NCBI GenBank assembly: GCA_938041455.1 | Contig: CALITO010000003.1 | Span: 98,548-162,547 of the forward strand | Length of the DNA: 64,000 bases | Direction: 5' to 3' | Source: an uncultured bacterium | Lineage (GTDB): Bacteria; Armatimonadota; JACIXR01 | In this document: positions 3,606 to 41,365 of the stretch, one piece after another | Layout: each line of letters begins with the position of its first letter | Position numbering within the stretch: position 1 is the first letter of the stretch | Position numbers and translations under genes: made by a program | The notes under the pieces: generated by a model | Told to the model about the DNA's origin: nothing | The model's database searches: none | The model's input: the letters and a program-made list of their open reading frames with translations, nothing else

Positions 3606-3971
3606 ATGTATGGTATTATCCTGAGGGAAAGTTTTAGTGCTGCTCATTTCTTAAAAGGTTATAGGGGAAAATGCGAGCGGATACATGGACATAATTATTG
3701 GGTGGAACTCCATATTCAAGGTAAAGAGTTGGACAGAGTGGGGATCCTTTGGGATTTCGCTGAGGCGAAAAAAGTCTTGAGGGGGGTCTTGGATGAGCTG
3801 GATCACTCCTTGCTCAACGAGGAACCCATCCTCGGCTCCCTTAACCCTACGGTGGAAAACATCGCTCGTCATATATTTGAGAGGGTGAAAGCACAGATTC
3901 CCTCTCACTTGCTTTTAAAGCGGGTAACTGTTTGGGAGACGGATAATAGCGCTGGCTATTATGAAGAATAG
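3606..3971 (+). CDS. queD: 6-carboxy-5,6,7,8-tetrahydropterin synthase QueD
   Basis: 121 aa with a T-fold signature (CERIHGHNYWVE). Confidence 0.85.
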   Translation: MYGIILRESFSAAHFLKGYRGKCERIHGHNYWVELHIQGKELDRVGILWDFAEAKKVLRGVLDELDHSLLNEEPILGSLNPTVENIARHIFERVKAQIPSHLLLKRVTVWETDNSAGYYEE

Positions 3972-4641
3972 GGAGAATTTCCTCGTCCTCCTTTCCGCGG
4001 GGCTGGATTCAACAGTTAATCTCAAACTGGCGTCCTTGCGCGGCAATGTCCTTCTTGCCCTCACATTTGATTATGGGCAAGTTGCAAGAGAGCAAGAGAT
4101 TAAGCGGAGTGCCTTGATTTGCAGAGAATTGGGCGTGCCCCACAAAGTAGTGGAATTACCTTGGCTCAGAGAAATAGCCAAAAGTGGGTTGTTAAGCGGG
4201 GAAGTGCCCAGGATAAGGGATGGTAAAGAATTAGGGAAGAGGTCTTGGGAGCAAGTTTGGGTGCCTGGTAGGAACCTCCTCTTCATTTCCATAGGGGTCG
4301 CTTTCGCTGAGGCGATGGAAGCAGATGGGGTGGTCTGCGGCTTTAATAAGGAGGAGGGAGAAATATTTCCCGATAATTCACCTTCCTTCGTTTCCGCTAT
4401 GAACTCCCTTCTTCAATACGCTTCACTAAGAGAGATAAAAGTTATTTCCTTCACTCAAGATATGGACAAGGGAGAGATAGCGAGATTGGGTTGGGAGATA
4501 GGAGCCCCTCTCCAGCATTGCTGGCCTTGCTACCTGGGAGGGGAGGAGATATGCGGGGAATGTGAGTCCTGCTTCAGATTTTTAAGAGCCCTTAAAAAGG
4601 CGGGATTATACGAAATATGGAAGGAAAAAAGGAGACTATGA
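3961..4641 (+). CDS. queC: 7-cyano-7-deazaguanine synthase QueC
   Basis: Carries the N-terminal PP-loop LVLLSAGLDSTV and a C-terminal Zn-binding Cys cluster (CWPCYLGGEEICGECESC). Confidence 0.9.
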   Translation: MKNRENFLVLLSAGLDSTVNLKLASLRGNVLLALTFDYGQVAREQEIKRSALICRELGVPHKVVELPWLREIAKSGLLSGEVPRIRDGKELGKRSWEQVWVPGRNLLFISIGVAFAEAMEADGVVCGFNKEEGEIFPDNSPSFVSAMNSLLQYASLREIKVISFTQDMDKGEIARLGWEIGAPLQHCWPCYLGGEEICGECESCFRFLRALKKAGLYEIWKEKRRL

Positions 4642-5189
4642 GGACCCTCTTTCTCAAGGAAAGAGTTCTTTACGATGGTAGCCAGCTACATTCTCATTGG
4701 GCCTATAAGAATTATTCGCTCCTTGGTGATAGCGTAGTTGCCTTTATCGGTCCTTGTGAGGTAAAAAAAGAGGAAATGGTGGATTTGGAGGATTTTCTGA
4801 AAGGGGAGGTTATAAGAGCGGAGGAAATGTTGCATTTCATTTGTGAGCATTTTGGCTTAGATTTGAGGGAGACGGTCTACCGTCAGAGGTTGCTAATCGT
4901 CTGTGCTAAGGAAGCACTTGAAGAGAGAGGGTTAAGAATCCTGAGGGTAGGGGACGATTTGTTCTACAATCAAAGAAAGCTTTCCATATCCATAGCCACC
5001 ATTACTCCCCTCTCGGGTAAAATACATCTCGGAATAAATATAGACCCCCGGGGAGCGCCCTTGCCAGCAGTGGGCTTAAAGGAGATAGGAATAGAACCCG
5101 TTGGTTTTGGGGAGGAAGTAATGAGGCGGTATAAAGAGGAAATAGAAGGAATACATACCACTATGTATAAGGTGAAGGGGGTGCCTTGA
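4638..5189 (+). CDS. uncharacterised 183-aa protein embedded in the que operon
   Basis: ATG 4638 overlaps the queC stop (ATGA) and is preceded by AAGGAG. No motif recognisable by eye. Its position between queC and queE implies co-transcription. Confidence 0.5.
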   Translation: MRTLFLKERVLYDGSQLHSHWAYKNYSLLGDSVVAFIGPCEVKKEEMVDLEDFLKGEVIRAEEMLHFICEHFGLDLRETVYRQRLLIVCAKEALEERGLRILRVGDDLFYNQRKLSISIATITPLSGKIHLGINIDPRGAPLPAVGLKEIGIEPVGFGEEVMRRYKEEIEGIHTTMYKVKGVP

Positions 5190-5193
5190 TTCT

Positions 5194-5952
5194 TTGCTCG
5201 AGCTTCCCCAAGCCTACATATATGAGATTTTTTCAACTATCCAAGGGGAGGGGATATATGTGGGGGAGAGGGAGGTATTTATCCGCTTTTGCGGGTGCAA
5301 CATTTCTTGCCCCTACTGTGACACCGAGTTCGCCTTGAAAAGGGTTTCCGCCTGCCTAGTGGAAAAGGAAGCAGGAATACGAGAATTTGATGTCCGTCCC
5401 AATCCCATAGGTCCTGAGGAGCTTGTTAAATTGCTCGCCCCTCTTTTGAAGAACCAGAAAATCCATCATTCCCTTTTTCTTACCGGGGGGGAACCCTTGA
5501 TTTGGGGTCAATTCCTTGCCCATTTCCTTCCCCAAGCGAGGAGGGTTTTCAACCTTCCCATAACATTGGAGACCAATGGGACCTTGCCTTCCGAGCTCGC
5601 CAGGGTTCTTCCCTGGATTGACATAATCTCTATGGATTATAAGCTACCCTCCACAATGGGAGGGGCAAATTATGCGGATGCGCACAAGGAATTCCTCCTC
5701 TTGGCCAAAAGCAAGGATGTTTTCCTGAAGTTCGTCCTAACAGCCTCTGTGGGCTTGGAGGAATTAAGAGAAGCATTCGCAATGGTTCATAAGTTGGGAG
5801 ATTTCCCCATCGTTCTTCAGCCAGTTACACCGGTTGAAAATATCCAACCTCCCAGCGAAGTCCTATTGCTCAAGATGCAGGAGATAGGAAAGGAGTTCTT
5901 CAGCAGGGTGAAGGTTTTACCACAAATGCACAAACTAATGAGGATAAGATGA
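5194..5952 (+). CDS. queE: 7-carboxy-7-deazaguanine synthase QueE (radical SAM)
   Basis: Carries IFSTIQGEGxxxG followed by a CGCNISCPYC cysteine cluster, as at the QueE N-terminus. A TTG start is likely. Confidence 0.85.
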   Translation: MLELPQAYIYEIFSTIQGEGIYVGEREVFIRFCGCNISCPYCDTEFALKRVSACLVEKEAGIREFDVRPNPIGPEELVKLLAPLLKNQKIHHSLFLTGGEPLIWGQFLAHFLPQARRVFNLPITLETNGTLPSELARVLPWIDIISMDYKLPSTMGGANYADAHKEFLLLAKSKDVFLKFVLTASVGLEELREAFAMVHKLGDFPIVLQPVTPVENIQPPSEVLLLKMQEIGKEFFSRVKVLPQMHKLMRIR

Positions 5953-5955
5953 GAT

Positions 5956-7047
5956 ATGTCCGTAGCGATGATAGGTATAAGCAAAGGAAGAGGAGAGTTA
6001 AAGGGAGAGGAGCGTTATATTAGGGCTATCGAGGAGGCAGGTGGTAAAGCTGTTATCCTTCCCCCCGGCAAGGGAGAGATAATACACAAATTAAATGGTT
6101 TGCTTTTGCCAGGGGGAGGAGATGTAAAGCCTTGTTTTTATGGGGAGGTTGAGCAAGGAAGCGAATCCATAGATGAGGAGAGGGATAAATGGGAGATAGA
6201 ACTTGCCCGCAGTTTCTTTAAGGAAGGAAAATCTATATTGGGAATATGCAGAGGGGCGCAGGTGTTGAACGTTTCCCTCGGGGGAACCCTCCATCAAGAT
6301 ATTAAAGGGCATAGGGAAGGGAGGCATTTGATCAAGATAGAAGAAGAGAGCTTGCTCTCTGATATCCTTGAGGGGATAAAGGAGATAGAGGTTGATTCCT
6401 CTCATCATCAAGCGGTAAAGGAAGTTGCTCCTTCTCTAAAGGAGGATGCCCGGAGCGGGGATGGCATTATAGAAGGGATAGAAGGAGAGGGTTTTATCCT
6501 CGGCGTTCAGTTCCATCCAGAAAGGATATATAAAGAGCAACCCATTATTTTCAATATATTTAAAAAATTCGTTCGAGCCTCTAAACGGGAGATATATACC
6601 TTAGGAACAAGCACGAGAAATTGGGAAGAGTTCATAGAAATCTTGAAGGCTTATGATGTGGAAGAAGTAGTGGATGTTAGAAGATTTCCTCTGAGCCGGT
6701 TGGAATGGTTCAGGAAGGAGGAACTTGAGAAGAGGTTGAGGGGAGAGGGGTTATTTTATATATGGATGGGCGAAGGATTGGGAGGCTATCGCTCACCTAG
6801 TTACCAAGCATACACTCGGACAGAGGAGTTCGGAGAAAGTTTGAAAAAATTATCTCAGCGAGCTTTGAGAAAGAGAGTGGTGATAATCTGTGCTGAGGCT
6901 TTACCCTGGCGATGCCATAGACGCTTCATAGCAAGTGCTATGGAGGAGAGGGGCTGGAAAGTTACCCATATAATAAGCAAAGGGAAAGAATGGTGCCCCA
7001 CTGAAAGGGTCCATCCCGAGGACGACCTCTTTTCGGAGGATGTTTAA
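5956..7047 (+). CDS. class I glutamine amidotransferase-like (peptidase C26 / gamma-glutamyl hydrolase-like) domain fused to a DUF488 domain
   Basis: The N-terminus carries the GICRGAQ nucleophile-elbow Cys and GVQFHPE His, matching the C26/GATase1 fold. The C-terminus carries IYTLGTS...VVDVRRFP...CAEALPWRCHRRFIA, typical of DUF488 (YeaO-like). Confidence 0.7.
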   Translation: MSVAMIGISKGRGELKGEERYIRAIEEAGGKAVILPPGKGEIIHKLNGLLLPGGGDVKPCFYGEVEQGSESIDEERDKWEIELARSFFKEGKSILGICRGAQVLNVSLGGTLHQDIKGHREGRHLIKIEEESLLSDILEGIKEIEVDSSHHQAVKEVAPSLKEDARSGDGIIEGIEGEGFILGVQFHPERIYKEQPIIFNIFKKFVRASKREIYTLGTSTRNWEEFIEILKAYDVEEVVDVRRFPLSRLEWFRKEELEKRLRGEGLFYIWMGEGLGGYRSPSYQAYTRTEEFGESLKKLSQRALRKRVVIICAEALPWRCHRRFIASAMEERGWKVTHIISKGKEWCPTERVHPEDDLFSEDV

Positions 7048-16955: not shown

Positions 16956-18125
16956 ATGAAGATTCTTTACTTTGATTGTTTTATCGGCGCCAGCGGGGAT
17001 ATGATTCTCTCAGCTCTCTTCGACCTCGGTGTTCCCCTGGGCGTAGTGCAAGAAGCGATAAATAAATTGGGTGTCGGGGAAGTTAAACTCTCAATAACTA
17101 AGGTAGAAAAACACCATATTTCTGCTCTCTCTCTGGATATCTTCGCCTCACCTCCTAAGAAGAGCTTCTCTTACGGAGAGATGGAAGAGATAGTGGGAGA
17201 AGCACCTCTGCCCGAGAAAATCAAGGGGGAATCCCTAACTATCCTGAAAAGGTTGGCATCAGCTGAGTCTTATGTCCACGGTGTGAAAATAGAAGATGTC
17301 CATTTTCACGAACTGGGGGGAGTGGATACGCTTGTTGACATCGTGGGGGCGGTCACCGCTATGGATTTCCTTGGAATAGAGGCAGTCTACTCCTCACCCC
17401 TCCCCTTGTCCTGTGGTTTTATAGAGGTAGCACACGGTTTTTTGCCCCTTCCTGCTCCTGCCACGATGAAACTACTGGAGGGAGTGCCAGTTCGCTCTCT
17501 TAACATAGAGGGAGAAACTCTCACTCCTACAGGAGCGGCAATAATCACCCATTATGCCAAGGAGTATCATCTTCCCGATATGAAGCTTTTGAAGGTAGGT
17601 TTGGGAGCAGGGAAGAAGGATTTCCCCCTTCCAAATATTCTCAGAGTTTTTCTGGGTGAAACGCCAGCTTCCTTTTCAAAAGAGCAGATCGTCCTTTTGG
17701 AGAGCAATATAGATGATATGCCTCCCAATCTGTATGAGCGTGTTATGGAAGAACTTTTTAAGGGAGGAGCATTGGATGTTTTCCTCCAACCGATAATTAT
17801 GAAAAGGAGTAGACCGGCGGTCTTACTCTCGGTCCTCTGTCATCAACAAGATGCAGATAAACTCGTAGGGATTATCTTCCGGGAAACAACAACCCTGGGG
17901 GTCAGATACAATCGCTTGGAGAGGGCGATTCTGGAGCGGGAGATAGTAAAGGTGAGGACTAAATGGGGCGAAGTGGAAATGAAGGTTGCGAAAAAGGGCG
18001 AGGAAATTCTTACCTATGCCCCGGAATTACGCTCCTGTGAAGAGATAGCGCGAAAGGAAGGCGTTCCTTTGAAAATGGTTATAGAGGAGGCGAGGAGGGC
18101 TTTTATGAAAGAACATAAATTATAA
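16956..18125 (+). CDS. larC: LarC-family (DUF111) nickel insertion protein
   Basis: Has the N-terminal MKILYFDCFIGASGDM signature and LarC/DUF111 length. Confidence 0.8.
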   Translation: MKILYFDCFIGASGDMILSALFDLGVPLGVVQEAINKLGVGEVKLSITKVEKHHISALSLDIFASPPKKSFSYGEMEEIVGEAPLPEKIKGESLTILKRLASAESYVHGVKIEDVHFHELGGVDTLVDIVGAVTAMDFLGIEAVYSSPLPLSCGFIEVAHGFLPLPAPATMKLLEGVPVRSLNIEGETLTPTGAAIITHYAKEYHLPDMKLLKVGLGAGKKDFPLPNILRVFLGETPASFSKEQIVLLESNIDDMPPNLYERVMEELFKGGALDVFLQPIIMKRSRPAVLLSVLCHQQDADKLVGIIFRETTTLGVRYNRLERAILEREIVKVRTKWGEVEMKVAKKGEEILTYAPELRSCEEIARKEGVPLKMVIEEARRAFMKEHKL

Positions 18126-26943: not shown

Positions 26944-26983
26944 TATATCGCAAAAAATTGCCCTCCTGTGAGCCACAGGAGGG
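26944..26983 (-). terminator. rho-independent terminator / possible attenuator hairpin between miaA and carA
   Basis: On the minus strand, the 10-bp stem CCCTCCTGTG-GCT-CACAGGAGGG is followed by CAATTTTTTG. The T-tract ends about 13 nt before the carA ATG. Confidence 0.5.
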
Positions 26984-27080
26984 CAATCTAAACTTCTTAA
27001 ACCCTTCCTAGCCTCACAGGACTAGATTTAAAGGGCTTCTTCAATTGTTAATTAAATTTTACTCCAAATAGAATATAAAG

Positions 27081-32646: not shown

Positions 32647-33168
32647 ATGAGGGCTTTTCAATGGTCTGTTAAGGACTTAACGAGGGCGAGCTTCCTTGGA
32701 GCTTTAGGGCTCGCCCTTCCTTTTCTCTTCCATCTCGTGGGTGCGGGGAGGATATTCTTGCCTATGCATATCCCCATCCTACTGGGAGGTTTTTTACTTC
32801 CCCCAACTCTCGCCTGCTTTCTTGGTGCAGTGGTGCCGTTTCTCTCCTCACTTCTAACTGGTATGCCACCTATCCTTCCCACGATGCCAATTATGGTCCT
32901 TGAGCTCGCTGGGCTGGGGGGAATAACGGCAATTCTCTATCACAATCTGAAAGTCGGCGTATGGGGAAGTCTAATAGGGGGGATAGTGGGAGATAGGTTT
33001 GTCCTTGCTCTCGTAGTTCTAATCCTTGGGAGATGGTTGGAGGTCAAATCCCCCATCGTTTATGTAGGTGGAGCGGTGATGACGGGCATTCCGGGGATTA
33101 TTTTGCAACTCTTAATCATTCCCCCCATAATTTATTTTTATGAGAAGCGCAAAAGGGAAGGGGGATAA
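32647..33168 (+). CDS. putative ECF-transporter substrate-specific (S) component
   Basis: 173 aa with 5-6 TM helices, sitting immediately upstream of, and overlapping, the EcfT/EcfA fusion gene. Confidence 0.5.
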   Translation: MRAFQWSVKDLTRASFLGALGLALPFLFHLVGAGRIFLPMHIPILLGGFLLPPTLACFLGAVVPFLSSLLTGMPPILPTMPIMVLELAGLGGITAILYHNLKVGVWGSLIGGIVGDRFVLALVVLILGRWLEVKSPIVYVGGAVMTGIPGIILQLLIIPPIIYFYEKRKREGG

Positions 33169-34429
33169 ACTCTGGATTATATTCCCTTCCTTTCTTATCC
33201 TTCCTTTTCTAATCCCTTGGATTAAGGGGAAATTCTTGCTTTCCCTTCTGCTTTTCTCCTTCTTTCTCCTTTTCTGCTACCGCATAAAATGGGAATGGTT
33301 TAAAAAAAGGTTTCTGCCTTTCCTTATATCTATAACTACGCTGACCTGCTTCTCACTACTTCTTGGGGGATCCAGAGATAAGATAATAGAACTCGACGCC
33401 CGTTGTGCAGGCGTTTTTCTTCTCTTTTCCCTTGTCACGAGCCAAATTACTCCCTCCCAGCTTTTGAGGATTTTCTCAAAAGAAGGAAAGCCCTCTTCGA
33501 TTGCCTTATTTTTCTATCTTACTTTCCGTTATTTTTCTCTCCTCTTAGAAGAAGGACAAAGGATGGTTCGTTCTGCTCAAGCGAGGGGAGGAGAGATGAA
33601 GAAGATAGTTTGGAGGTCCTTTAAACTCTTCGTAAATTATATTCTGAGAATTTTGAGGAGGAGCGAGGTGGTAGCGATGGCTATAGAAGCGAGAGGCTGG
33701 GAGGGGACGGAGACGCCCCCTCTATCTCAAGATGAGATAAGGTTGGAGGATGTTTCATTTACCTATCCCGATGGTAAAGAGGCGCTGAAGAATATAAACT
33801 TGAGGATAGGAAAGGGAGAAAGGGTGGCGATTTTGGGGAGAAATGGGGCGGGGAAATCGACCCTCCTTTGGGTTATAGGGGGATTTCTTAAGCCCAGGGG
33901 GAAGGTGAATGTCTTCGGAATAGAGGTGAAGAAAGAGAATCTTCCCAAATTGAGGAAAATAGTGGGCATAGTGTTTGAAGACCCCGAGGACCAGCTTTTA
34001 ATGCCCTCGCTTATTGAGGATGTTATGTTCGGTCTATTGAATATTGGTTATAGAAGGGGTGAAGCGGAGAGGTTGGCGAGGGAGGAATTGAAGAGGTTTG
34101 GTTTAGAAGGGTATGAAGAAAGCCATCCCCACGATTTATCACAGGGTGAGAAGAGGAGGGCATCTTTGGCAGGTGTAATGGTGATGAGACCACAACTTCT
34201 ACTTTTGGATGAGCCGAGCGCCAATTTGGATGCCCGAGGGCGCAAGGAATTGGTGGATATTTTAAAGGGACTGGATGCAACCTTTCTCCTTGCCACACAC
34301 GATTTCCAACTGGTGAGGGCGCTCTGCCCGAGGGCGGTTGTCCTCCTTGAAGGCGAAGTTGTTTACGATGGCGCAATGAAAAGTTTAGTAGAACAAAGGC
34401 AACTCTTAGAGGGCTGGGGGATATTATAG
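33140..34429 (+). CDS. ECF/CbiQO-type transporter: T (transmembrane) component fused to an ABC ATPase
   Basis: The N-terminal membrane half carries the two EcfT coupling-helix Ala-Arg-Gly motifs (SAQARGGE, AIEARGWEG). The C-terminal half has Walker A GRNGAGKST, the LSQGEKRR signature and Walker B LLLDEPSANLD. Confidence 0.7.
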   Translation: MRSAKGKGDKLWIIFPSFLILPFLIPWIKGKFLLSLLLFSFFLLFCYRIKWEWFKKRFLPFLISITTLTCFSLLLGGSRDKIIELDARCAGVFLLFSLVTSQITPSQLLRIFSKEGKPSSIALFFYLTFRYFSLLLEEGQRMVRSAQARGGEMKKIVWRSFKLFVNYILRILRRSEVVAMAIEARGWEGTETPPLSQDEIRLEDVSFTYPDGKEALKNINLRIGKGERVAILGRNGAGKSTLLWVIGGFLKPRGKVNVFGIEVKKENLPKLRKIVGIVFEDPEDQLLMPSLIEDVMFGLLNIGYRRGEAERLAREELKRFGLEGYEESHPHDLSQGEKRRASLAGVMVMRPQLLLLDEPSANLDARGRKELVDILKGLDATFLLATHDFQLVRALCPRAVVLLEGEVVYDGAMKSLVEQRQLLEGWGIL

Positions 34430-34462: not shown

Positions 34463-34471
34463 TGCTATAAT
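34463..34471 (+). promoter_or_regulatory. extended -10 element (TGcTATAAT) immediately upstream of nikR
   Basis: TGCTATAAT lies 11 nt before ATG 34483. TATAG half-sites flank the region. Confidence 0.3.
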
Positions 34472-34482
34472 TGAAAATTGCT

Positions 34483-34905
34483 ATGAAGAGCAAAGTGACA
34501 AGGTTCAGTGTATCGGTGTATCCCAGCCTATTAAGAAAATTCGATGCTTTCGTGAAGGAGAGAGGCTATGCCAATAGATCAGAGGCTTTTAGAGCTCTGA
34601 TTAAGAAGGAACTTGTGGAGGAGGAATGGCAGGAGGAAGAGAAAGAGACGGTGGGCGTCTTGACTTTGGTTTATGACCATCATAAAAGCGACATTGTGGA
34701 AAAACTGGTTGATATCCAGCATCATTCTTATCCTTTGATAATCTCCACGCTCCACATCCATCTTGACGAAGATAATTGTGTGGAGGCTGTGTTCATAAGG
34801 GGTAAGGTAAAGGAGATAAGGGAAGTGGCGAAAGCAATTGGTTCGATAAAGGGGATAAAGTTCCAAAATCTCGCTTTGGCGACCACGGGCAAGGAAATCC
34901 CTTAG
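34483..34905 (+). CDS. nikR: nickel-responsive regulator NikR (RHH plus ACT-like metal-binding domain)
   Basis: N-terminal ribbon-helix-helix (KVTRFSVSVYPSLLRKFD). The C-terminal His-rich nickel site is VYDHHKSD...QHHS...HIHLDEDNC. The ATG at 34483 is preferred over the ORF-track TTG at 34471. Confidence 0.8.
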   Translation: MKSKVTRFSVSVYPSLLRKFDAFVKERGYANRSEAFRALIKKELVEEEWQEEEKETVGVLTLVYDHHKSDIVEKLVDIQHHSYPLIISTLHIHLDEDNCVEAVFIRGKVKEIREVAKAIGSIKGIKFQNLALATTGKEIP

Positions 34906-39545: not shown

Positions 39546-40682
39546 GTGAAAAGGACTATATTGTTGCTGTTGTTAGTGGGTGGAAGCGCTTGGCTTGTCC
39601 TTTCGGCAACCCTACCAAAGAACATAATCGCGGTTCTCGAAAAGGTAGATAAGACCAACGCTTCCTACAAAACCGTTAAGGCTTCCTTGGAGGTAGTGAC
39701 GAAAATGGGAGGGATAAGCACCTCAATGGAAGGGGAGCTATGGATGGATAATCAAGCGGGGAAGTTCAGGGTGCTCTACCGCACCGGACCTACGCGAGCG
39801 CTTATGCTCTACGACGGAGAAACTCTTTGGAATTATATGGAAGCTAATAAAACCTATCTCAAACAGCGATTGCCCAGAGAAGAGGTGGAGAAAAATTGGC
39901 TCCTTTTCTTGCCACCGGCTGTTGCCTTTAGTCCCATTTGCAAAAAGAGTTTCAATAGCGAGAGTTTTTTAAAAAGTCTGGGCAAGTCCACAATGGGCAA
40001 GGCAGTGCTTAATAAGAAGAGCGTTTTTGTTATAACATTTGTGGATAAGGAAGATAATACGCAGATCAAGTTAACGGTTGACGCCAAGGAATATAGGATT
40101 TTGCAAATAGGGATTGTGGTGCCATCGGAAGAAAATGGGAAAGAGGTCACCTTTAAAATAAAGAGTTTCCAATCCAATGTCTCCTTCCCCCAGGATGCCT
40201 TCGCATTCACTCCACCTCCCGATGCTAAGGAGTTCACCCCACCCCAAGGTGGTGAAACTATGGAGGAACAAATGGCTCCCGATTTCTCCTTAAAGGCTTT
40301 AGATGGTAAGGAATATACCCTTTCTGCCCTCAAAGGCAAGGTGGTTCTCCTGGATTTTTGGGCGACCTGGTGTCCACCTTGTAGGGAAGAGATACCAATA
40401 ATAGAGAAGCTCCATAGGGAATTTAAGGATAAGGGTTTGGTAGTTCTGGGGATAAACGATGAGGATAGAGCAACGGTCGAGGAGTTCGTTAAGGAGAAAA
40501 AGATTACTTTCCCTATCCTTATGGATAGAGAGGGAAAAGTTGCCCAAAGCTACAAAGTGGAAGCCATCCCTCGGGTCATCTTGATAAATAAGGAAGGCAA
40601 AATAGTTAAGGATATAACTGGCTACTATGAGGGAAACGAGAAAATCTTAAAGGAGGCGATAGAGAATTCGCTAAGCAAGTAA
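39546..40682 (+). CDS. secreted LolA-like domain fused to a TlpA/ResA-family thioredoxin domain
   Basis: Has a signal peptide and a GGGAGG site 9 nt before GTG. The C-terminal WATWCPPCREE CxxC motif is of thioredoxin-fold type. The N-terminal approximately 240 aa form a beta-rich LolA-like domain. Confidence 0.6.
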   Translation: MKRTILLLLLVGGSAWLVLSATLPKNIIAVLEKVDKTNASYKTVKASLEVVTKMGGISTSMEGELWMDNQAGKFRVLYRTGPTRALMLYDGETLWNYMEANKTYLKQRLPREEVEKNWLLFLPPAVAFSPICKKSFNSESFLKSLGKSTMGKAVLNKKSVFVITFVDKEDNTQIKLTVDAKEYRILQIGIVVPSEENGKEVTFKIKSFQSNVSFPQDAFAFTPPPDAKEFTPPQGGETMEEQMAPDFSLKALDGKEYTLSALKGKVVLLDFWATWCPPCREEIPIIEKLHREFKDKGLVVLGINDEDRATVEEFVKEKKITFPILMDREGKVAQSYKVEAIPRVILINKEGKIVKDITGYYEGNEKILKEAIENSLSK

Positions 40683-40747: not shown

Positions 40748-41365
40748 GTGGAGGTTGTTCTCCCATCGGATGTCATAGCCTACCTCGAAAAAATGGAAAC
40801 AGCGATGAGGAATCTCAAAAGCGTTCAATACACCTCGCATCTCACTTTTACTGCGAAGGGAAAAAAGATAACAAAGACAGAACAAAGCACGGCTAAGATA
40901 TGGATGCAGAAGCCGCTTTTCTTCCGCATCGACGCTTCTCAAGATGGGAAGAACACGCTCCTATTCGTTTGTGATAACAAACAGCTCTTCCTTTACGAGT
41001 ATAAGACGAACCGTTACGGTGTTTTTGAACCTACCCCCCAGCGAGTGGAAAAGGCTACAGGCTTCTCCCTTCTTTCCTTTGTCCTGACGCCCAATTTAAA
41101 GGAAAGATTACTCGTAGGAGTCGTCTCCGCTTCCCTCACTTCTCATCCTTCATATCTCCTTCTCACTCTCCAGACCAAGGATAGGGATAGCTTCCAAATA
41201 TATATGGATAAGAAGACTTTTCTGCCCTTCAAAACAAGGATAGATATGCAATTCGCTTCCCTGGAAGAGGCGGTCTCTGAGTTGAAGCTCGATCCCAAAA
41301 TTCCACCCTCCACTTTCACTTTCGAGCCGCCCAAAGGGGCGATGATGACTGGATTCAGGTTATGA
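40748..41365 (+). CDS. LolA-like outer-membrane lipoprotein carrier/sorting family protein (coordinates from the ORF track)
   Basis: The same frame is open upstream from 40631 and encodes ...IPLLALCLLFSGCASRK, so a lipoprotein signal lies upstream of the GTG at 40748. The true start is therefore probably upstream. Confidence 0.5.
   Translation: MEVVLPSDVIAYLEKMETAMRNLKSVQYTSHLTFTAKGKKITKTEQSTAKIWMQKPLFFRIDASQDGKNTLLFVCDNKQLFLYEYKTNRYGVFEPTPQRVEKATGFSLLSFVLTPNLKERLLVGVVSASLTSHPSYLLLTLQTKDRDSFQIYMDKKTFLPFKTRIDMQFASLEEAVSELKLDPKIPPSTFTFEPPKGAMMTGFRL

Follow-up and report, generated by a model that had tools for sequence, protein, structure and literature searches.

The nitrile 7-cyano-7-deazaguanine (preQ0) is the precursor of queuosine and archaeosine. 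Its synthesis by FolE, QueD, QueE, and QueC is regarded as complete, and the pathway feeds queuosine and archaeosine formation in tRNA, 7-deazaguanine modification of DNA in phages and bacteria, and the production of deazapurine antibiotics. Within this route, QueE converts 6-carboxytetrahydropterin (CPH4) to 7-carboxy-7-deazaguanine (CDG); QueC, consuming two ATP and ammonia, first forms the amide ADG from CDG and from this amide the nitrile preQ0. Here we analyze a stretch of 64,000 nucleotides from an uncultured Armatimonadota bacterium (contig CALITO010000003.1, positions 98,548 to 162,547; hereafter the window), in which queC and queE flank a gene of the DUF366 family (PF04017). Its companions come from the four enzyme families of the canonical pathway (Bacillus subtilis queCDEF type). 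Clusters with DUF366 differ from that type in the added gene between queC and queE, in lacking queF, in having a variant QueC whose YPDC motif reads FPDN, and in having a QueE that scores below the NCBIfam cut-offs. These features suggest a form of the preQ0 module that has not been described, in which FPDN-type QueC and DUF366 are combined with a distinct subtype of QueE. DUF366 very probably functions in preQ0/deazaguanine synthesis, and we put at roughly 50% the probability that it serves FPDN-type QueC as a dedicated partner in the conversion of CDG to preQ0.

Family membership and fold of the DUF366 protein

Residues 1–180 of the open reading frame align with the entire DUF366 profile hidden Markov model (positions 1–184 of 184; E 4.5e-67, 225.6 bits against a gathering cut-off of 29.9). 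Judged by its sequence, the frame is a real gene, with similarity to DUF366 far beyond chance. An earlier note on this DNA had called it unassigned, which holds for its function only: the family is catalogued and has a crystal structure, that of the "hypothetical protein" PH0223 from Pyrococcus horikoshii (PDB 2DDZ), the single solved structure matched (E 4e-44, 46% identity). The match to PH0223 gives a family name, not an activity. An exhaustive profile search of a library of 1.8 billion proteins retrieved 779 representative clusters of DUF366 at 50% identity, nearly all of them 180–200 aa in length. One representative, P0235 (347 aa), carries a Clp_N double repeat upstream of a complete DUF366 domain and is either a fusion or a read-through gene call. 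No NCBIfam model covers the frame, and it matches neither the QueF nor the QueF_N domain of Pfam. The earlier note's statement that the protein shows no QueF motifs and no T-fold is borne out by this and by the ligase-like fold, and the searches returned no confident match to a family with a known, unrelated function.

The AlphaFold2 model of the DUF366 protein (pLDDT 95.4) predicts an alpha/beta fold like that of biotin and lipoate ligases, with a core resembling class-II aminoacyl-tRNA synthetases (aaRS); 2DDZ has the same fold. That the frame encodes a DUF366 member with a ligase-like fold is almost certain. The 2DDZ entry contains six chains, and PH0223 was among the self-interacting proteins in a two-hybrid survey (PMC1414084). 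DUF366 is thus a compact homo-oligomeric protein with the biotin-ligase/LplA/LipB fold.

The relationship to the described ligases is distant. DUF366 is only 9–18% identical to BirA/biotin protein ligase (BPL), LplA, and LipB, the frame has no match to PF03099 (BPL_LplA_LipB) at E<=0.01, and Foldseek against BFVD returned just weak LplA-like matches. A profile alignment (hhalign) with Escherichia coli BirA was obtained for the C-terminal half only (E 2e-4, probability 46%). It pairs R103-V-GDDLFYNQRK114-LS of DUF366 with K172-WPNDLYLQDRK183-LAG of BirA, placing GDDL opposite PNDL, and IHLGINI with VIGAGINM. Because K114 aligns with BirA K183, which contacts biotinyl-5'-AMP and has K133 as its counterpart in LplA, the active-site lysine motif of the ligase superfamily is kept in DUF366. 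The Gly/Arg-rich cofactor/ATP loop (GRGRxGR in BPL, RRxxGGG in LplA) is not recognized in DUF366, whose alignment contains no conserved Arg-rich loop; the C-terminal cap domain is absent, and the LipB-type cysteine is not conserved. The partners differ as well, being carboxylases or lipoyl domains for BPL, LplA, and LipB, and deazaguanine enzymes, by genomic association, for DUF366.

Residue conservation was assessed in an alignment of 103 DUF366 members, comprising que-linked, viral, Pyrococcus, and Planctomycete-type proteins. Eighteen residues are invariant in all groups (Y12, G14, G38, D49, D52, I59, E70, Q83, G105, D106, D107, K114, S118, T121, S126, H130, N134, and P141), among them five acidic ones; K114 is kept in 103/103, and the window protein carries the family-invariant residues. 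Since PH0223 and the Planctomycete-type clade, which have no que neighbors, share these invariants with the que-linked members, the molecular function is probably the same in every context. Cysteine C40 is common in cellular members, with replacements in 9/77, and is Ala or Met in 15 of the 18 viral ones. This lack of conservation excludes a family-wide catalysis by cysteine, such as a LipB-like thioester or a QueF-like thioimide.

Genomic association with QueC and QueE

For the gene neighborhoods, one genome per species was scanned with a 12-sequence alignment as the query, and at least 562 genomes contained a relative. We examined the 80 best-matching loci, calling neighbors by phmmer with the window's own proteins; 77 of these loci had sufficient flank. 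The set over-represents relatives of the query, especially the Peptococcaceae/Desulfotomaculia group. Linkage to queC and queE is near-obligate: queE lies directly downstream of DUF366 in 70/77 loci and queC directly upstream in 63/77, while at least one preQ0 gene is found within 5 kb in 76/80. The earlier note's description of a conserved unknown in a tight biosynthetic operon therefore holds well beyond the window, and the gene is very strongly conserved among related genomes. According to the record titles, the loci span about ten phyla, including Bacillota, Deltaproteobacteria/Desulfobacteria, Nitrospirota, Armatimonadia, Actinomycetota, Planctomycetota, Brevinematales, and several unclassified lineages. 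A methanogenic archaeon, Methanolobus psychrophilus, has the order QueC-DUF366-radical SAM-QueD. In 12 loci, only queE stands beside DUF366.

The modal order, found in 38 loci, is queD-queC-DUF366-queE-folE, the gene following queE encoding GTP cyclohydrolase I. Because FolE, QueD, QueE, and QueC are all present in this cluster, DUF366 is best seen as an added or partner component rather than a gap-filler, and the missing pathway step suggested in the earlier note has no counterpart among the known steps. Distance-matrix (mirror-tree) correlations among DUF366, QueC, QueE, and QueD range from r 0.75 to 0.88, which shows that the four evolve together.

The QueC proteins next to DUF366 belong to a distinct subtype. 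Canonical QueC is defined by the signature SGGxDS, YxQxHxxE, VPxRN, and YPDC together with a Zn motif, and its mutants Y35A, R99A, and Y131A are inactive, while Y131F is partly active (2026 study, PMC13329287). In all adjacent cellular QueCs (63/63), F-(P/A/S)-D-N replaces YPDC, and Ala or Ser replaces the His of YxQxH, while the PP-loop, VPxRN, and the Zn motif/Cys cluster are retained. The window QueC is of this type, with SAGLDS, YGQVAREQE, VPGRN, and FPDNS followed by a C-terminal Cys cluster. The association also holds in reverse: five FPDN-type QueCs chosen blind to their neighbors all have DUF366 downstream (5/5), directly in four and after an inserted beta-lactamase-family gene in the fifth, and two of the five are QueC-DUF366 pairs without queE or queD nearby. 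Furthermore, QueC and DUF366 are joined in frame in three fusion proteins, P0263 (438 aa), P0355 (408 aa), and P0356 (461 aa), which are mutually 35–37% identical and come from three different neighborhoods, two of them without an adjacent queE. A QueC with an accessory domain is likewise known from Gat-QueC of the archaeosine-type branch, in which the accessory is an N-terminal amidotransferase, whereas that of the QueC-DUF366 fusions is C-terminal and ligase-like.

The adjacent QueE is similarly distinct, forming a subtype of about 245 aa without a curated model. Ten QueEs, from eight bacterial lineages and two phage-like contigs, were compared with the five NCBIfam QueE models (cut-offs 200–300 bits), and all ten fell below the cut-offs. 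The eight cellular proteins and one viral protein scored 60–103 bits, and the other viral protein (L082) 201 bits. Low-scoring QueE-like proteins of this kind (60–100 bits) are encoded in the window and in loci L007, L014, L017, L024, L030, L031, L035, and L049.

Outside cellular genomes, DUF366 is encoded by 20 IMG/VR contigs, and 16 of these have a preQ0 gene within 5 kb. One phage-like order reads PolA - DnaN-like - QueD - phosphoribosyltransferase - QueE - QueC - DUF366 - FolE - ... - 412-aa two-domain QueF - ... - RecA. In L094, a genuine QueF (PF14819 + PF14489) occurs together with DUF366. Another reads FolE2 ... DUF366 - Gat-QueC; in one such contig, DUF366 lies directly upstream of a 488-aa GATase_7-QueC protein. 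A portal-like gene is found near DUF366 in another set of contigs.

These phage-like modules have further features of their own. A type-I phosphoribosyltransferase of 143–155 aa is encoded between queD/queE and queC in L082–L085 and L093–L096 (e.g., L094, 6945–13211), a hint that the modified base could be made by a route at the nucleotide level. Some modules also encode the 412-aa QueF, which is extended at its N-terminus by about 140 aa, and the module adjoins an intein-containing PolA and the DnaN-like gene. In five contigs (L086–L090; e.g., L087, 9252–9974), a 240–263-aa protein without a Pfam match is encoded directly upstream of DUF366; it contains a ...DNAAFELG... stretch resembling the transglycosylase DSGxF motif and, going by this resemblance, may be a DpdA-like enzyme. 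The sole DUF366 match in INPHARED, "Microcystis phage MaAM05" (L108, MW495066.1, 109408–123971), was discarded: bacterial housekeeping genes (glyS, mtgA, engB, fabI, and fliM) and no que genes surround DUF366 there, and the stretch resembles a bacterial chromosome, not a phage.

Possible roles of DUF366

We propose that DUF366 is a dedicated fifth component of an archaeal/anaerobe-type preQ0 module, next to FolE, QueD, QueE, and the variant QueC. It would bind CDG, and possibly also ADG, in the pocket that holds biotinyl- or lipoyl-AMP in BirA and LplA, a pocket predicted to be lined by the invariant Lys114 and the GDD, H130, and N134 motifs. DUF366 would then present the intermediate to QueC within a physical complex of the two proteins, or activate it with ATP for QueC. 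In these partner QueCs, residues of the canonical substrate pocket have given way to others, namely the His in YxQxHxxE and both Tyr and Cys in YPDC. CDG is the one metabolite that both flanking enzymes handle, and as a carboxylic acid it is the kind of substrate used by the biotin/lipoate-ligase fold; this suggests the placement at the CDG step with QueC as the partner.

Several observations weigh against this proposal. In the alignment with BirA, the nucleotide loop GRGRxGR of BPL remained unaligned and the N-terminal half of DUF366 unmatched, and hhalign against E. coli LipB gave no alignment. The PH0223 gene adjoins genes for DUF2139 and a class-I LysRS rather than que genes. A separate Planctomycete-type clade (P0154 and P0169) also has no que genes nearby (L105, 2621–7763; L106; L107), its tightly overlapping operon encoding two proteins of about 390 aa without a Pfam or NCBIfam match, DUF366, an LPG_synthase_TM flippase-like membrane protein, and a PfkB-family kinase. 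Mirror-tree and partial correlations single out no partner, QueC ranking no higher than QueE. In the AlphaFold2 model of a natural QueC-DUF366 fusion (pTM 0.70), both domains are confident, the linker is disordered, and no interface is established. The QueC beside DUF366 in phage-like contigs is mostly canonical-like (Y/F-RDC-R, His present), so DUF366 cannot simply compensate for missing QueC residues. Finally, DUF366, COG2029, PF04017, and 2DDZ are unmentioned in the literature searched by whole word, with subscription literature, STRING, and SEED outside its scope, and the linkage of DUF366 may already be visible in STRING or SEED. The family is also unmentioned in the 2026 QueC-family paper with its supplement and in the 2023 phage deazaguanine paper.

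A more far-reaching possibility is that catalysis is split between the two proteins. AsnA, the ammonia-dependent asparagine synthetase, is class-II-aaRS-like, and AsnB is a PP-loop enzyme. By analogy, DUF366 could be an ATP-dependent, AsnA-like enzyme that converts CDG through CDG-AMP to ADG, leaving FPDN-type QueC with the conversion of ADG to preQ0 only, or the work could be divided in reverse; DUF366 has no specific sequence relationship to AsnA. The kept lysine motif, the enzyme-like invariant polar residues with five acidic ones among them, the altered substrate pocket of the partner QueCs, and the QueC-DUF366 fusions would all fit such a division. It is harder to reconcile with the unrecognized nucleotide-binding Gly/Arg loop, with partner QueCs that retain the PP-loop, VPxRN, and Zn motif (the window protein passes the QueC equivalog cut-off), and with the canonical-like QueC that accompanies DUF366 in phages. 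We judge split catalysis rather unlikely. An adenylating or amidating activity of DUF366 itself is doubtful, and the same applies to a general two-protein preQ0 synthase of archaea, many anaerobic bacteria, and some phages, in which DUF366 would activate or amidate CDG next to FPDN-type QueC and the ATP half-reactions would be split between the class-II-aaRS-like and PP-loop folds. DUF366 might instead serve as a scaffold or chaperone without a small-molecule ligand, bridging or stabilizing the divergent QueE and QueC during the hand-over of CDG or ammonia or during assembly of the radical-SAM enzyme. The translationally coupled position between queC and queE, the frequency of queE as the downstream or even sole neighbor, the distinct QueE subtype, the homo-oligomeric nature of DUF366, and the joint evolution of the four proteins are in line with this. 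A scaffold, however, usually needs fewer invariants than these eighteen, which concentrate in motifs homologous to the BPL active site; the same invariants occur in members without que neighbors, and QueC-DUF366 pairs and fusions exist without an adjacent queE. Such a purely structural role appears improbable.

Two further explanations place DUF366 outside the synthesis of the deazaguanine base. It could be an unrelated housekeeping protein, for example a biotin/lipoate-type ligase that targets a different acid or a protein lysine and merely hitch-hikes in the operon. The Pyrococcus and Planctomycete-type contexts without que genes are compatible with this, as is the window operon, a long co-directional run that includes the unrelated genes truB, ribF, and ilvC. 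It is very unlikely and disfavored in view of the linkage to preQ0 genes across about ten bacterial phyla, a methanogen, and phage-like contigs, the three independent fusions with QueC, and the one-to-one association with one QueC subtype. The remaining candidate, also disfavored, is a substitute for QueF or another nitrile-acting enzyme, such as an alternative preQ0 reductase or an amidinotransferase. The earlier note had assigned the gene to a "queF-like slot" between queC and queE, queF is absent from the 64-kb window, and C40 is common in cellular members. There is no such slot. DUF366 co-occurs with two-domain QueF or Gat-QueC in phage-like clusters and is also part of the archaeal que cluster of Methanolobus. 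Reduction of preQ0 to preQ1 is not known from archaea, and because that archaeal cluster nonetheless carries DUF366, the protein is not a substitute for QueF. The protein resembles neither QueF nor the T-fold, it shows no dinucleotide-binding motif, and C40 is replaced in most viral and some cellular members, all of which makes this explanation extremely improbable. That DUF366 occurs alongside QueF and Gat-QueC and in archaeal clusters places it in deazaguanine base synthesis and not in a QueF-like downstream step.

Locus layout, other window features, and significance

The features of the window are listed in the table. The DUF366 gene starts with ATG (4638–4640) and ends with TGA (5187–5189), a total of 183 codons. 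The queC stop codon TGA (4639–4641) lies within the start of DUF366, forming an ATGA overlap, and a gap of 4 nt (5190–5193) separates the DUF366 stop from queE; these coordinates agree with those of the earlier note. The gap hinges on the TTG start of queE, because the window sequence contains no other in-frame ATG, GTG, or TTG upstream of the conserved N-terminal IYEIFSTIQGEG motif of QueE. Public gene callers choose an alternative in-frame ATG at 4617 for DUF366, which gives a 190-aa version (P0001). We prefer the start at 4638, because the N-termini of homologues line up with this Met and an AAGGAG element precedes it. The end of queD and the start of queC overlap by 11 nt. The G+C content of the DUF366 gene (0.449) matches that of the window (0.468).

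Features of the window (positions refer to the 64,000-nucleotide stretch)
Feature	Positions	Strand	Basis and remarks
queD (6-carboxytetrahydropterin synthase, PTPS family)	3606–3971	+	TIGR03367, 98 bits against a cut-off of 89.25
queC, variant FPDN-type	3961–4641	+	TIGR00364, 165.7 bits against a cut-off of 150.3; motifs
AAGGAG, Shine-Dalgarno-like, purine-rich element	4629–4634	+	Read directly; 3 nt upstream of ATG 4638, within the 3' end of queC
DUF366 (PF04017) gene, 183 aa, predicted biotin/lipoate-ligase-like fold	4638–5189	+	Sequence, Pfam, PDB match, alignment, model
queE-like radical SAM gene, TTG start at 5194	5194–5952	+	CxxxCxxC; N-terminal IFSTIQGEG motif; below all five NCBIfam QueE cut-offs
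Class-I glutamine amidotransferase (Peptidase_C26/GATase)-DUF488 fusion	5956–7047	+	Starts 3 nt after queE; DUF488 part of the YeaO-like family
Nickel-related gene	16956–18125	+	LarC-type Ni-insertion protein
PyrR-binding-site RNA	26952–27038	-	Rfam RF00515, 66.4 bits; upstream of a minus-strand operon
Nickel-related gene	33140–34429	+	CbiQ-ABC ATPase fusion
Nickel-related gene	34471–34905	+	NikR
DUF2092/LolA-like domain fused to a Redoxin/AhpC-TSA domain	39546–40682	+	378 aa
Stand-alone DUF2092 protein	40748–41365	+	Next after the DUF2092-Redoxin fusion gene

The GATase-DUF488 gene is kept beside queE only in the closest relatives (L001–L003). Its product could be an ammonia donor for QueC or could be unrelated, and its membership of the module is uncertain. 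At the Rfam gathering threshold, neither the window nor seven Firmicute loci yielded a preQ1 riboswitch, which is uninformative for co-regulation; the PyrR-binding site is the sole Rfam match at this threshold in the window.

Rather than biology of a new kind, the association of DUF366 with preQ0 genes is a well-supported lead on a pathway held to be complete and on an orphan crystal structure. In hundreds of genomes, a fifth protein seems to be tied almost obligately to one QueC subtype, to be fused to QueC in some lineages, and to belong to phage-like deazaguanine modules. If this is so, preQ0 synthesis in much of the anaerobic and archaeal world may differ from what the characterized enzymes of B. 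subtilis and E. coli show. The proposed role would also give a function to 2DDZ, a 20-year-old structural-genomics orphan, and the biotin/lipoate-ligase fold would gain a new class of substrate.

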